From Escherichia phage vb_EcoS_bov22_1: 44,612 nucleotides of DNA. The stretch's first letter is position 1. Each line of letters begins with the position of its first letter. The translations under genes and the position numbers were made by a program. This document shows, in pieces, positions 6,531 to 18,859 of this stretch. Below the pieces are notes generated by a model. It did no database searches and was not told the origin of the DNA. It was given only the letters and a program-made list of their open reading frames with translations. The stretch is taken from sequence record NC_073084.1. One strand, written 5' to 3'.

Positions 6531-6557
6531 TAAAAAGGGCGTCCAAACCGGACACCC
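6531..6557 (-). terminator. terminator/attenuator hairpin (minus strand)
   Basis: On minus-strand RNA GGGUGUCC-GGUUU-GGACGCCC then UUUUUA; the stem needs a G-U pair, so it only closes on the minus-strand transcript. Confidence 0.45.
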
Positions 6558-6559
6558 TC

Positions 6560-6588
6560 AATATAATGCAACCAATATTATTATGCAA
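6560..6588 (-). promoter_or_regulatory. sigma70-like promoter (minus strand) overlapping two TTGGTTGCA motifs
   Basis: Minus strand reads TTGCAT-17 nt-TATATT; -35 lies inside the repeated motif. Confidence 0.4.
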
Positions 6589-9265: not shown

Positions 9266-9289
9266 CAAAAATGGCGGGACAAGCCCGCC
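9266..9289 (-). terminator. intercistronic terminator/attenuator hairpin (minus strand)
   Basis: Minus strand GGCGGGC-UUGU-CCCGCC followed by AUUUUUG, just upstream of the next RBS. Confidence 0.4.
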
Positions 9290-9296
9290 GTATTAA

Positions 9297-9470
9297 TTAT
9301 TTTTGTTCTGCACGGTAGCGGCGCTGCCGTTCGCGCTCTTTCTTATTGCGGCACGATTTGCACTCTGCCCGATGCCCGTCTGGACTGCGCGCAGTTTTAC
9401 CGGTGTATTTGTGGAACTGGGATAGCGGCTTGACACAGCCGCAATTACTACAACGTTTTTCTTCAATCAT
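9297..9470 (-). CDS. small zinc-ribbon protein with basic C-terminus
   Basis: 57 aa from ATG 9470 (GAGGA RBS); C-x2-C ... C-x2-C; C-terminal KKERERQRRYR. Confidence 0.5.
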   Translation of the reverse strand: MIEEKRCSNCGCVKPLSQFHKYTGKTARSPDGHRAECKSCRNKKERERQRRYRAEQK

Positions 9471-12260: not shown

Positions 12261-12287
12261 ATTAAAAAGCCCGCATTAAGCGGGCTT
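12261..12287 (-). terminator. rho-independent terminator (minus strand)
   Basis: Minus strand AAGCCCGC-UUAAU-GCGGGCUU followed by U-rich tract, after the SSB stop. Confidence 0.5.
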
Positions 12288-12305
12288 GAATAGTGGGCTT
12301 TGCCC

Positions 12306-13088
12306 TTAACGGCGGCGACGTTTACGTGGCGCTTCGTCTTCGTCGTCGTCCTCATCTTCGTCATCGCGTGGCTTACGACGTTTGCGAGGTTTTTCATCTT
12401 CCTCATCGTCGTCGTCATCGCGGCGCTTGGATTTCTTGGACTTGCGCGGCTTGTCATCTTCATCATCGTCATCACGACGTTTTGACTTTTTGGACTTGCG
12501 CGGTGCTTCGTCTTCGTCGTCGTTGTCCAGGTCTTCGTCGGAACATGAAGACCCGCCACCTCCGAAGGCTTCGCCGTCTTCACGGAATCGCAGACCCAGC
12601 AAGCCAGCCCCGAGACCCTTGCCGTTGGTATTGTTCCACGCCCAGATATCAAGGGACACGTTGCAATAACAACCGGAGTAGATCTCCTGGCCGTCAATCT
12701 CGTCGCCGTCGATGGTCAGACCTTGTTCGGTCTGCTTCTCGCCGAGTGACGTTTGAATGATAGGCTGTTTGAACGATTTGGCGTTGATATACAACATGCC
12801 TTCGAATTCTTCGGTCACTTCGTCACGCTCGTCACCGTCGCGGACTGCGCATTCCTTAGAATCCTGGGCGTAGTGGCGGTCCATCCACTTATCGGCATTC
12901 TTCTCGGATTTCAGCTTGTCGGTGAGCACTGCGCGCGCTGCCGCTTCCACTTTGTCCACCTGCGGATCTTCTTTATCCAGAAGAATCACGGCACGGTATG
13001 CCGGTTTTTGTCCATCCTGTTTAGGGGTATCACGTTCCCAGATTTTCAGGAAGCATACGCGCACATTTTTCAGGTTGACTTTAGCCAT
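12306..13088 (-). CDS. single-strand DNA-binding protein (phage type) with long acidic/basic repeat tail
   Basis: ATG 13088 (MAKVNLKN) with GAGGAA RBS; OB-fold-like body ending in DGEAFGGG; C-terminal repeats DDDDEDDKPRKSKKSKRR; usual partner of the RecB-like nuclease and polymerase A in phage replication modules. Confidence 0.6.
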   Translation of the reverse strand: MAKVNLKNVRVCFLKIWERDTPKQDGQKPAYRAVILLDKEDPQVDKVEAAARAVLTDKLKSEKNADKWMDRHYAQDSKECAVRDGDERDEVTEEFEGMLYINAKSFKQPIIQTSLGEKQTEQGLTIDGDEIDGQEIYSGCYCNVSLDIWAWNNTNGKGLGAGLLGLRFREDGEAFGGGGSSCSDEDLDNDDEDEAPRKSKKSKRRDDDDEDDKPRKSKKSKRRDDDDDEEDEKPRKRRKPRDDEDEDDDEDEAPRKRRRR

Positions 13089-15295: not shown

Positions 15296-15324
15296 CTAAA
15301 AAGAGGCCCGCAGATTAGCGGGCC
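15296..15324 (-). terminator. intercistronic terminator/attenuator (minus strand)
   Basis: Minus strand GGCCCGC-UAAUCU-GCGGGCC followed by UCUUUUUA. Confidence 0.5.
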
Positions 15325-15332
15325 GGAATATA

Positions 15333-15851
15333 TTAATCTTCCAGTTCGAAATAGGTTTCGACGATTTCTTTTAACTCTGTGTGGAAGTCTTCGACGTCGT
15401 CATCTTCCAGCTTGGCGATTGATTTGATCTCGAACGATTCCAGCAGGTCGTCGAATTCGTCGTTCGCGTCGTCGTCATCACCCCCGGCAATAATAGCGGC
15501 ATACTGTTTGATCTCGTCGCGCATCTCTGCCAGCGGATCGGCATCTTTCTTACCTTTGCCTTTCGCCGGGGCTTTTTTACCCTTCGCAGGTTTTTCGTCT
15601 TCGGCTTCTTCATCGTCGTCATCTTCTACGACTTCTTTTTTGGACTTACCTTTCGCCGGGGCTTTTTTAGATTTAGCCGGTTTTTCGTCTTCGGCTTCAT
15701 CGTCGCCATCTTCGACAACTTCTTTTTTCGCCTTAGACGGCTTCTTGTCTTCCTGTTTACCAACGGCAGCGCCAACGGTTTCATAATGCTTTGCAATGGT
15801 TTCCAGTGCTACTACGCCGCGAGTGATCAGGTTTACGATTTGCTCAAACAT
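15333..15851 (-). CDS. highly acidic protein with Lys-rich tandem repeats; first gene of the leftward early operon (candidate host-takeover or DNA-mimic protein)
   Basis: ATG 15851 with GGAGATATACC RBS (upstream part of the track ORF has no RBS); two ~30-aa repeats KKEVVEDxDDEAEDEKPAKxKKAPAKGKxKK; acidic C-terminus. Confidence 0.65.
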   Translation of the reverse strand: MFEQIVNLITRGVVALETIAKHYETVGAAVGKQEDKKPSKAKKEVVEDGDDEAEDEKPAKSKKAPAKGKSKKEVVEDDDDEEAEDEKPAKGKKAPAKGKGKKDADPLAEMRDEIKQYAAIIAGGDDDDANDEFDDLLESFEIKSIAKLEDDDVEDFHTELKEIVETYFELED

Positions 15852-16088
15852 GGTATATCTCCGATTGGTTAAGTTTAGGTGTCGGCAGTTAACTTCGTCG
15901 GTGGCCTTAACATATTGCCAGGTTACGCGTTCTCCCGTTCGGGTAGTGGACCTGGTTATATAATCACGGTTGGGAATCCTGACACTTCGATCCGGCCCCT
16001 GCGTTGCCCCTCTCCAGTTTGCGTCCTGCATCCTGTCGACGGGGTGAATAATAGATTGGTTGCAGGATGGGTGTCAACAACTAATTTC

Positions 16089-16124
16089 AAAAAAAAAAGC
16101 GCCGAGGCAAAATGCGACGGCGCT
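16089..16124 (-). terminator. rho-independent terminator (minus strand) within the divergent control region
   Basis: Minus strand AGCGCCG-13 nt loop-CGGCGCU followed by U10. Confidence 0.4.
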
Positions 16125-16194
16125 AACCAATAAGAGACAATGAGACGGGAATTATTATTACACGCGTGCGCGCCCGTTTCAATATCCAAAGGAT

Positions 16195-16223
16195 TTGACA
16201 CCGTGCAGTTTTGGGTGTAGTTT
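16195..16223 (+). promoter_or_regulatory. sigma70-like promoter for the rightward genes
   Basis: TTGACA-17 nt-TAGTTT about 30 nt upstream of the 16255 start. Confidence 0.45.
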
Positions 16224-16254
16224 CGTTGGTCATTAACCAACTGAGGGCAGAGCA

Positions 16255-16584
16255 ATGAATGTAAACGACGCAATCGAAATGTTAACGAAGACTGTTTGCA
16301 GTGAGACAAGCCGGTCATGGGCATACACCGATGCCGTAGGGGCTGTGTTATTTGAAATCGAACGACTGCGCAGTATCGAAAAAGAATTGCGCGCCAGGCT
16401 GGAACTACTCAACGGTACAGCAGCAAGCAAGCTGCAAAAACACAATGAAGAAATGGAAGAATACAAAAAGCAGGTTATCCGTTTGCGCGCCGAGGGCAAA
16501 TCCTGGGCGATGATTGCTGAGTTGACCGGAATTAATCAGAGCACAGTTCGCTCCTGGGTACGCAATAATAAAACTTCTAAGTAA
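16255..16584 (+). CDS. helix-turn-helix DNA-binding protein (putative transcriptional regulator)
   Basis: 109 aa; C-terminal SWAMIAELTGINQSTVRSWV HTH; N-terminal coiled coil; first gene of the rightward block. Confidence 0.65.
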   Translation: MNVNDAIEMLTKTVCSETSRSWAYTDAVGAVLFEIERLRSIEKELRARLELLNGTAASKLQKHNEEMEEYKKQVIRLRAEGKSWAMIAELTGINQSTVRSWVRNNKTSK

Positions 16585-16594
16585 GGCCGCGGCA

Positions 16595-18859
16595 ATGAGC
16601 TTAATTAAATTCGCTGTAACAAAACCCGCTAAAAAAGGCGAAAAAGCCAGGGCGGAAAACTTCCAGATGACGACCGATGAGTTTTTCGAATTTATCAAAG
16701 ATGCGAAAGAAATATCCTCGGTGCATATCAACAAGACGGAAGATAAAGCCGAGTATGCGCGCCGCAAGCGTAAGGCCGATGGCATCGTGGCGTATACCAG
16801 TGACGGATTGCGTCGTAAGACCAGTGCGGTGGACCGCTCGATCCTGTTCTTTGATATTGACCGCACCGACACCCGCACCCTGCGCCGCTGCCGTAAGGCG
16901 TTCATCGACGCGGGTCTGGAACACGTATTTCACACCACCACCGGCGACCGCCACCCGCTGAAGGGCGGCACGCGTTGCGCCCGTTTCCTGGTGCTCACTG
17001 ACAAGCCTGTACCGGCTGAAGACCTGGGCCGCGTACAATATGCACTATTACACCAACTGGGTCTGTCAGATGTGGACTTCGACGATTGCACGAAAGACAC
17101 AAACCGCCTGATGTACCTGCCACACCAGCAGTCTGTTATTAAGTGCCACTATGGCAAGCGCGCCAATGTGCGTCGTCTACTCCGTCGGGCGGACAAGCTG
17201 GGGGTGGAAAAAGAGGAAGTACGCCGCGAGCTTACCCAGGGCGACGACGCAGTGGCAGACGGCATTCTGGACTGGTGCTTCCAGGCCGGATTCGAGGAGT
17301 TATCTTCTGGTCGTGGTTATGAAGTGCCGTGTCCTAACGAACATCTGCACAGCGGCGAAGGGTCGACGGCTATCATGGTCAAGGATGGTGAGATCCGTTT
17401 CAAGTGTATGCACACTGGCAACGAGTGTTGCTCGGAACTGAACAGACACCAGCACCTGGCGCTACGTCTTATCGGGATCCCGGACCACCTGAACGTCGAA
17501 CCGCACAACATGTCACGTAAGCAAATCGCCGCCATCCTCCCAGGACTGGACGACGAGGAAGTGGAATCATGCTATGCGCATATCGTTGATGCGGTCGGAG
17601 ACGGCGACGAGTACGGCGTATGTACCGACGCTGACCTGGATAACGAACCGGTCGCACTGTTCAGTAAGCACGACCCTATCATCGAGGGGTTGATTAACTT
17701 TAAATCGACCTGGTATATGGCTGGCGAGTCTAACATCGGTAAATCGTTCTACGTGCTGGGCCAAATGGGCGCTGTTGCCGCGGGTATTCCGTTCGGCGGT
17801 GCGAAGGTCGTCCAGTCTCATTGCTTCTATTTCGACGCGGAAGGTGGCGAAGCCTCCAACCAGCGTAAGGAAGCATTGCAGATCAAATATGAGCACGACC
17901 TGGACAAGCTGCACATTATCGATCTGCAATCACGCGGCTGGGATATCACCAGCAAGTCCGGCTTGCGTGAAGTTATCAGCTTCATCAACCGCACCGCTAA
18001 CGGCGAACCGGTTGGCCTGGTGGCGTTCGACTCACTCAACCAGACGGTTGCGTTGCGGTCCGCCGATGCCAAACCGTTCGACGAGAACAACGCCAGCGAT
18101 ATGGGCGAAGTGGTCAAAGCGCTGAAGGCCATCGCGGAAAATACAGGCGGCAGCGCGGGCGTCATCCACCACCCGGCGAAGGGTGCAAACGGCAGCAGAT
18201 CTCCCCGTGGGTCCGGTGCGCTGCATGGTGCTGTCGATTCTGCGTTCTTCCTGGAGCAACCAGACGACAACCAGCCCGGACAACTGAACCTGTATCACGA
18301 GAAGGCACGTAACGGCATCAAGCAAGCGCCGCGCGGCTTCGTCCTGCTCAAGTGCAAGGTGAAGGTGGATCTCCGCAAGTCCGAGGCGTTCGAGGCACAC
18401 CAGTCCACCAGCACAGGGCCGGACTTCGGCGATGTAGTTGCCGGTTGGGACGTCAAGCCAATTGCATCCACGCCACGCGACGAGACTCTTTACCTCGTAC
18501 CGGTCGCCCTGGCACCGTTCGCCATCGAACAGGCGAAGGCCGCGGGCAAGGCCGCAGTTAAGGAGGAGAACGCCGCAGGACCGCGCAACGAAAAAGAGAA
18601 AGTGCTTTATGCGGCACTGGAAAAACTGATGGAAGATAACCCGGACCATACCGGATTCAGTAAATCGGCAATTGTACGCCAGGCGGGATTGGCAAAAGGC
18701 GGCACATCGACGAAGGCAATCGACGATATGGTCGAGCGCGGCGTGCTCGGTTTTTATACAGATCCGCACACCGGGGCCATCTATGGGTCGTCAAATATCG
18801 TCATCAAAACGAATATACCCATCACGCTTTCGGCGACCGATGACGACCTGAAAGATTAA
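16595..18859 (+). CDS. primase-helicase (N-terminal primase-like domain with Cys/His cluster, C-terminal RecA-like ATPase)
   Basis: 754 aa; Walker A GESNIGKS and RepA/DnaB-like ATPase region; CPNEHLH ... CMHTGNECC zinc-binding-like cluster. Confidence 0.75.
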   Translation: MSLIKFAVTKPAKKGEKARAENFQMTTDEFFEFIKDAKEISSVHINKTEDKAEYARRKRKADGIVAYTSDGLRRKTSAVDRSILFFDIDRTDTRTLRRCRKAFIDAGLEHVFHTTTGDRHPLKGGTRCARFLVLTDKPVPAEDLGRVQYALLHQLGLSDVDFDDCTKDTNRLMYLPHQQSVIKCHYGKRANVRRLLRRADKLGVEKEEVRRELTQGDDAVADGILDWCFQAGFEELSSGRGYEVPCPNEHLHSGEGSTAIMVKDGEIRFKCMHTGNECCSELNRHQHLALRLIGIPDHLNVEPHNMSRKQIAAILPGLDDEEVESCYAHIVDAVGDGDEYGVCTDADLDNEPVALFSKHDPIIEGLINFKSTWYMAGESNIGKSFYVLGQMGAVAAGIPFGGAKVVQSHCFYFDAEGGEASNQRKEALQIKYEHDLDKLHIIDLQSRGWDITSKSGLREVISFINRTANGEPVGLVAFDSLNQTVALRSADAKPFDENNASDMGEVVKALKAIAENTGGSAGVIHHPAKGANGSRSPRGSGALHGAVDSAFFLEQPDDNQPGQLNLYHEKARNGIKQAPRGFVLLKCKVKVDLRKSEAFEAHQSTSTGPDFGDVVAGWDVKPIASTPRDETLYLVPVALAPFAIEQAKAAGKAAVKEENAAGPRNEKEKVLYAALEKLMEDNPDHTGFSKSAIVRQAGLAKGGTSTKAIDDMVERGVLGFYTDPHTGAIYGSSNIVIKTNIPITLSATDDDLKD

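Follow-up and report, generated by a model that had tools for sequence, protein, structure and literature searches.

A candidate small RNA gene between the divergent early operons of Escherichia phage vb_EcoS_bov22_1 and its Dhillonvirus relatives

The divergent control region of Escherichia phage vb_EcoS_bov22_1 carries, on the minus strand, a predicted promoter (P_s) followed closely by a predicted intrinsic terminator. As sequence elements, the promoter, the terminator and the conserved terminator stem are a real feature of this region, and a discrete short RNA is probably made from P_s, judging by these sequence elements. With slightly less than even confidence, we read P_s and the terminator as a small RNA gene, the RNA of which would pair with the start regions of both flanking genes, while the terminator would also shield the leftward early promoter P_L. 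A regulatory function, in which the RNA lowers or times the translation of both flanking first genes, is proposed a shade more cautiously. The predicted RNA is best read as a previously undescribed phage RNA of a known kind.

Dhillonvirus comprises the HK578-like virulent siphophages of E. coli; these coliphages are common and serve both in therapy and in defence-system screens. To our knowledge, few regulatory RNAs are known in virulent phages. Literature searches by genus, phage name and sequence strings returned no description of the small RNA or of the neighbouring leader RNA; one transcriptome study used an identical phage and analysed the host cells alone.

Promoters and neighbouring elements of the control region

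The window, i.e., the whole stretch of 44,612 nt that was analysed (NC_073084.1), contains the sole large divergent intergenic region of the vb_EcoS_bov22_1 genome at 15852-16254. The leftward (minus strand) operon of 12 kb begins at ATG 15851 and includes nuclease, SSB, DNA polymerase and helicase genes; its first gene, starting at this ATG, encodes a 172-aa acidic protein. In the rightward (plus strand) operon, genes for a 109-aa HTH protein (16255) and a primase-helicase (16595) are followed by small early, lysis and structural genes; the HTH protein matches the HTH_23/HTH_28 families and is sigma-70 region 4-like. No tRNA or tmRNA was found in the 44.6-kb window. The stretch 15300-16700 is 100% identical to that of Escherichia phage vb_EcoS_bov11C2 and three sister isolates, and 95-97% identical to that of many other Dhillonvirus members. 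The following features are referred to below:

16195-16223, plus strand: P_R, predicted rightward promoter, TTGACA-17-TAGTTT, read from sequence
16154-16182, minus strand: P_s, -35 TTGAAA (16182..16177), 17-nt GC-rich spacer, TGn-extended -10 AATAAT (16159..16154)
16089-16147, minus strand: predicted small RNA of ~53-59 nt, start predicted at 16146-16148, 3' end inside the U-run
16123-16147, minus strand: predicted single-stranded 5' seed, CGUCUCAUUGUCUCUUAUUGGUUAG
16089-16124, minus strand: intrinsic terminator, stem AGCGCCG/CGGCGCT plus inner 3-bp stem, U10
16048-16077, minus strand: P_L, leftward early promoter, TTGACA-18-TATTAT, 11/12
16233-16271, plus strand: predicted target 1 (right start region), UAACCAA-C-UGAGGG..GCAAUGA, ATG 16255
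15849-15871, minus strand: predicted target 2 (left start region), UAACCAAU-C-GGAGAUAUACCAUG, ATG 15851

The preliminary description, made from the sequence, had pointed to a promoter-like TTGAAA-16-TAATAA on the minus strand. This site is real, and TTGAAA-17-AATAAT is the same site shifted by one base, scoring 10/12 in a sigma-70 consensus scan, with a TG at 16162..16161. P_s has both sigma-70 hexamers at a spacing within 16-18 bp, and its RNA would start at ~16147, assuming the usual 7-nt spacing after the -10. Matches of at least 10/12 occurred just three times in the whole window on both strands (89 kb), and two of the three are P_s and P_L, which are 105 bp apart. P_L is located directly downstream of the terminator, with 11 bp between the terminator end and the P_L -35. 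P_s and P_R stand back-to-back with their -35 hexamers 12 bp apart; the P_R -10 scores 3/6, under the -10 threshold of the scan. Among 20 distinct Dhillonvirus sequences, the P_s -35 and -10 were essentially invariant and the P_s spacer nearly so (two variable positions), whereas P_L and P_R showed conserved hexamers and far more variable spacers. All three promoters are marked by consensus in the HK578 GenBank record.

Several additional elements were observed at these promoters. The P_s spacer contains a 14-nt, perfectly alternating purine-pyrimidine tract (16160-16173; ACACGCGTGCGCGC on the plus strand), which is GC-rich, includes MluI- and BssHII-type palindromes and hardly varies within the genus; lying between the back-to-back promoters, it could serve as a protein site or as a supercoil-sensitive element. 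A 10-nt inverted repeat (90%; 16024-16033 and 16058-16067, TCCTGCATCC and GGTTGCAGGA) flanks the P_L -10 and start site and could be an operator; the promoter spacer holds one of its arms and the first leader RNA hairpin the other. The T-tract of the terminator plus GAAATTAG, located at -38 to -58 of P_L, may be UP-element-like for this promoter. In HK578 (L003, 1560-2032) and CHD5UKE2 (L048, 890-1374), the 109-aa HTH gene is replaced by a different first rightward gene of 142-149 aa, which starts MSTNETLNRWNH; the -35 is shared, but the -10 and 5'UTR are different, and the arrangement is, by sequence comparison, a module swap right at the promoter.

The P_L transcript would begin with a structured leader RNA of ~150 nt (15886-16047, minus strand; core ~16036..15895). 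Copies at 77-94% identity were found in T1-like phages (Motto and swan01), Murrayvirus Lumpael, Sortsnevirus IME279, Alux-21 and metagenome phage contigs. They nearly always start a few bases past a -10-like box, and a start codon follows 20-60 nt downstream of them; the genes downstream are unrelated small early genes. In the leader covariance model R1 (40 copies, 152-183 bits), 13 of 39 pairs were changed on both sides, 88% of cells were paired versus 26-47% in slid controls, and long unpaired stretches were invariant. The leader was not found in Rfam 15, and 185,579 bacterial and archaeal species genomes gave one match, in a 42.7-kb contig labelled MAG. A relationship with the HK022 put RNA was considered and rejected, the covariance model having no match in HK022. 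On these comparisons, the leader looks like a new RNA family and could be a cis-acting leader. Within Dhillonvirus, it is a ~140-bp presence/absence difference (~15880-16021), being missing in Envy and YD-2008.s-type genomes (L005, L007 and L008), and Ioannina/L017 has unrelated sequence in the leader slot. All of these genomes, Ioannina/L017 included, retain P_s, the terminator and P_L, as well as the left-hand ribosome-binding motif.

The annotated reading frames also extend into this region. A 232-aa version of the first leftward gene (15333-16031, minus strand; bas16_0048 of GeorgBuechner) crosses the leader RNA, and the extended leftward ORF of Ioannina reaches further, over P_L and the candidate small RNA gene. 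The true start of this gene is likely ATG 15851, which has a GGAGA 8 nt upstream. Public records over-call ORFs in the control region, and those called in several records are probably not genes, which corrects the existing annotation. Another strong intrinsic terminator (15298-15342, minus strand; GGCCCGC-loop-GCGGGCC followed by UCUUUUU, -20 kcal/mol) directly follows the first leftward gene, leaving only ~20 nt to the next one, and its 6-nt loop is inverted (reverse-complemented) in some strains. Because this terminator lies between leftward genes, the downstream replication genes would depend on read-through.

The terminator and the predicted RNA

Read on the minus strand from 16124, the terminator is AGCGCCG-UC-GCA-UUU-UGC-CU-CGGCGCU followed by nine U to 16089, that is, a GC-rich stem-loop with a U-tract, as in intrinsic terminators. 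The outer stem and the inner 3-bp stem span 16124..16098 (7+3 bp), and T10 covers 16098..16089, its first T doubling as the last base of the outer stem. Thus, the strong hairpin plus U10 noticed earlier at 16089-16124 was confirmed in both its stem and its T10, and the latter is the longest T-run among all hairpin-plus-T sites of the window. The hairpin at 16124..16098 was skipped by an automatic terminator scan (loop limit 8) for loop size alone; the terminator is annotated in the CS16 and WF5505 records. Since the plus strand has no T-run after the hairpin, the terminator is one-directional.

The 59-nt RNA had a predicted fold of -16.7 kcal/mol (z = -3.7), and none of 200 shuffled sequences folded as well; the terminator fold energies ranged from -14.8 to -16.7 kcal/mol. 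The 5' 23 nt of the predicted RNA were unpaired. The hairpin is therefore placed ~23 nt after the predicted start, a correction of the ~50 nt downstream of the promoter given for it before, and the transcript, counted from the predicted start at 16146-16148, would measure ~53-59 nt and not 60-80 nt. A free seed, a terminator hairpin and a 3' U-tail of at least 6 nt, the layout of Hfq-type small RNAs, are all present in the predicted RNA.

The unit was found in all 153 matching phage records at a coverage of at least 80%, and 146 of them showed at least 95% identity. Among 20 aligned sequences, the first 22 transcribed nt (16146..16125) were invariant, except for a 1-nt deletion in two; in addition, strain Opt212 has a 5-nt duplication in the transcribed 5' part. 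All nine counted stem pairs were kept in 20 of 20 sequences, and slid controls were 28-58% paired. Two stem pairs were changed on both sides (GC to UA and GC to CG), both in the Ioannina/L017 lineage, and the length of the T-run varied from 8 to 13 across the strains (20 sequences). The structure is evolutionarily maintained, as expected of an intrinsic terminator.

Searching Rfam 15 at permissive thresholds with 3 kb and then 361 nt identified no family at the gathering threshold for the small RNA. The best sub-threshold matches, ncS54 (18.1; threshold 43) and STnc480 (20.9; threshold 72), were alignments of the terminator only. A BLAST search against 5,426 complete E. coli genomes gave no match to the unit, and therefore neither a homologue nor a long complement is present in these host genomes.

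Complementarity to the flanking start regions

The seed and the right start region (HTH gene, 16233-16271) were predicted to form a duplex of -21.6 kcal/mol, which ranked first among 61 annotated translation-initiation regions and in the top 0.2% of 12,732 genome windows. The duplex with the left start region, UAACCAAU-C-GGAGA (15871..15858), was -18.5 kcal/mol and ranked fifth of 61; moreover, a repeat finder independently returned this left site and 16124-16137 as a 14-nt inverted repeat (86%). The combined energy of -40.1 was reached by none of 3000 shuffled seeds (shuffle mean -23.7, sd 4.0). By computation, the seed complementarity is thus beyond chance, as expected of a trans-acting small RNA. 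In a coarse 45-nt window scan of the genome, scattered unrelated coding windows were found at -23 to -25.7 kcal/mol, and the flanking start regions stood out only after all annotated starts were ranked; their duplex energies are good without being unique.

The motif TAACCAAY occurs in four copies in 44.6 kb, and three of them are inside the 403-bp region, each oriented as the pairing predicts. The 14-mer pattern TAACCAAYNRRRGR matches exactly three sites, namely, the RNA gene and both flanking start regions. The left motif copy is still present in strains without the leader RNA. Pairing was predicted in every lineage tested despite Shine-Dalgarno variation in the right target: the seed is nearly invariant, whereas the targets vary in their Shine-Dalgarno part yet stay paired, and no two-sided seed-target change was seen. 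Specifically, one A-to-G target change in L010 gives a G-U pair. In HK578 and CHD5UKE2, which have a different right-hand gene, the start region GAGACA..CAAUGAG pairs with CUCAUUGUCUC of the predicted RNA.

The plus strand of the RNA gene (TAACCAAUAAGAGACAAUGAG) resembles a start region, which suggests that the RNA gene may have arisen by start-region duplication. The TAACCAA motif with its three copies could just as well be a DNA operator or the remnant of a duplicated ribosome-binding region.

If P_s and the terminator form a small RNA gene, host sigma-70 RNA polymerase would start at ~16147 on the minus strand early in infection and stop in the U-run at 16098..16089. The released RNA would comprise an unpaired 5' segment of ~23 nt, then a single GC hairpin and finally a long U tail, and these three parts would give it an Hfq-type layout. 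Its unpaired 5'-CUCAUUGUCUCUUAUUGGUUA would pair with the Shine-Dalgarno/AUG regions of the HTH gene and the 172-aa protein gene, so that the seed would mask the Shine-Dalgarno sequence and AUG of both, the predicted 5'UTR of the HTH gene being only ~25 nt. The terminator would halt P_s transcription 11 bp before the P_L -35, and P_L transcripts would therefore start cleanly. We infer promoter activity, the start site, RNA accumulation, Hfq use and the direction of regulation from the sequence. The full proposal combines one ~57-nt RNA, copied in reverse from a ribosome-binding region, that pairs with the first genes of both early operons at once and occupies the same slot as an OOP-like antisense RNA in related genera; as a whole, we regard it as possible but doubtful.

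Relatives, known systems and alternative explanations

A search with the primase-helicase identified ten contigs of another group (L020-L029; 37-46% identity), near Salmonella phages such as FSL SP-049 and vB_SenTO17. All ten contain a minus-strand hairpin with T6-10, located 75-125 nt upstream of the primase ATG and immediately following the stop codon of a small HTH gene of the XRE type; the unit (locus coordinates ~2370-2490) sits inside the HTH-primase intergenic spacer. In nine of the ten, a promoter-like site on the same strand is found 30-45 nt upstream of the hairpin, and the predicted RNAs of ~70-85 nt consist of a 5' hairpin, a CU-rich linker and the terminator. The hairpin sequences are wholly different between subgroups, and the position and orientation are kept. 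Within the 7-kb loci, the RNAs of these relatives had no trans match to a start region and a cis complement only, and in these phages they would act solely in cis, which speaks against the trans-pairing reading. Because the unit recurs in Dhillonvirus and in these distant relatives, the replication module has, as a conserved feature, a predicted short RNA unit that is directed away from the replication gene.

The lambda OOP RNA is 77 nt in length. Its unit, pO-oop-tO, lies between cII and O (PMC5869508; PMC3985674). Host polymerase transcribes OOP, which is short and non-coding, from a promoter dedicated to it up to a hairpin terminator of its own (PMC5869508; PMC3985674), and the same is predicted for the Dhillonvirus RNA. 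In addition, the Dhillonvirus unit, like OOP, is opposite to and immediately upstream of replication genes (PMC5869508; PMC3985674). In the relatives, the unit is placed exactly as oop, between a small HTH gene and the replication gene and convergent with rightward transcription. Unlike OOP, which overlaps the 3' end of cII by 52 bases as a cis-antisense RNA, the Dhillonvirus unit overlaps no gene and lies upstream of P_R, and its predicted targets are matched partially and in trans; sequence similarity between the two is absent. A short antisense transcript had been suggested for this locus, and a discrete short non-coding unit is supported by the promoter, the terminator, the 153 records, the compensatory changes and the units of the relatives, but the word antisense is not literally right because P_R lies to the right of the unit and P_L to its left. 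In Dhillonvirus, 16089-16147 has no gene or predicted transcript on the opposite (plus) strand.

P22 Sar and prophage small RNAs such as DicF are phage-encoded, ~50-70 nt long and block translation by base-pairing at the ribosome-binding region of the target mRNA. The predicted RNA resembles DicF in its free seed, terminator hairpin and U tail; DicF targets host mRNAs, whereas the predicted targets here are two flanking phage start regions in a virulent phage. It differs from Sar, which is encoded opposite its target and hence has a full complement.

In the strongest alternative, which we consider rather unlikely, P_s matters only as a DNA site, as a divergent partner or competitor of P_R or as a platform for a regulator, while the transcript is waste, the terminator only protects P_L, and the TAACCAAY copies are operators, e.g., for the HTH protein. 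An insulating terminator was the second option of the preliminary description; the layout is compatible with insulation (11 bp to the P_L -35), which is probably also true, but the invariant 22-nt 5' segment and the three-copy TAACCAAY motif are left unexplained by it. The hairpin plus T-run ends before the next -35 as in insulating terminator-promoter junctions, and a terminator directly upstream of the promoter also precedes the leader RNA in other, unrelated phages. The terminator there ends an upstream protein-coding operon, whereas the Dhillonvirus terminator ends only a ~59-nt unit with its own strong promoter. The nearly invariant P_s spacer, compared with the variable P_L and P_R spacers, suggests a protein site; P_s and P_R are back-to-back with 12 bp between the -35 hexamers; the product of the first rightward gene is HTH_23/sigma-70 region 4-like; and each TAACCAAY copy is downstream of one of the three predicted start sites. 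However, TAACCAAY has no dyad symmetry, and in most strains the left copy is found ~175 bp past the P_L start, which is odd for an operator. Moreover, the similarity runs past the 8-mer into the Shine-Dalgarno sequence and AUG, fitting RNA pairing or start-region duplication and not an operator, and, were the transcript useless, 153 genomes would more simply have lost P_s than retained a strong promoter along with a strong terminator.

Lambda 6S (pR'-tR') and StxS of Shiga-toxin phage are short, abundant RNAs made upstream of a long operon from a strong constitutive promoter with a close intrinsic terminator. The Dhillonvirus unit similarly has a strong predicted promoter closely upstream of an intrinsic terminator before a long operon. 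As an attenuator of this type, which we judge distinctly improbable, P_s would constantly produce the short terminated RNA, and a phage antiterminator loading at P_s would later give read-through here and at terminators in the 12-kb leftward operon. The nearly invariant P_s spacer could hold a loading site, and the coding strand of the leftward operon has at least four more hairpin-plus-T sites (15342..15298, 12308..12264, 9311..9267 and 6576..6532). On the other hand, the separate 11/12 promoter P_L immediately downstream can serve the operon, and the leftward genes are replication genes and not late genes, whereas lambda 6S and StxS feed a Q-antiterminated late operon. Neither a Q-like nor another antiterminator family was found in the HTH protein or in nine small early rightward proteins; when the early proteins were searched against Pfam and PHROGs, all matches other than those of the HTH protein and two holins were to families of unknown function.

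Less probable still is a replication-linked role, as debated for lambda pO/oop, in which P_s transcription would activate or modulate a nearby origin or supply a primer, with the RNA sequence being of little matter. The unit lies upstream of the primase-helicase gene in Dhillonvirus and in the ten distant relatives, and an A10 tract and the GC-rich alternating purine-pyrimidine tract are present. Lambda pO, located next to gene O, is a precedent in that it modulates the initiation of replication (PMC3985674). The region showed no iterons or other origin features, and such a role leaves the conserved seed and its two start-region matches unexplained. GAGAC-N3-GAGAC was examined as an iteron and rejected, its single occurrence being no more than chance gives.

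We give very little weight to the terminator belonging to a small protein gene or to a chance arrangement: the 36-aa ORF (16233..16123, minus strand; annotated in GeorgBuechner and called a hypothetical protein in some records) begins upstream of P_s, covers P_R and, in at least 12 of 21 distinct sequences, is either missing or interrupted by an internal frameshift, unlike the conserved frame of a small protein gene. Chance, in turn, is excluded by three observations: the unit is conserved, its stem covaries and promoter matches of this quality are rare. The earlier statement that the transcript has no ORF holds in the face of this ORF, given its upstream start and a frame that many lineages do not keep. 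A 26-aa plus-strand ORF (ATG 16141) was likewise rejected; it has no promoter, its Shine-Dalgarno-like site is just 2 nt from the ATG, and lineage-specific 1-2-nt insertions or deletions occur within its span.

If P_s and the terminator are a small RNA gene as we tentatively propose, the early programme of these phages would become accessible through a conserved RNA that controls the first gene of each early operon. A single RNA would set the dose or timing of both the early regulator and the leftward lead gene, and the replication module would have an old, conserved RNA control point. The unit would also be a test case for antisense regulators arising from duplicated ribosome-binding regions. 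If the ordinary part alone holds, the genus would still have a well-conserved insulating terminator before its leftward early promoter.
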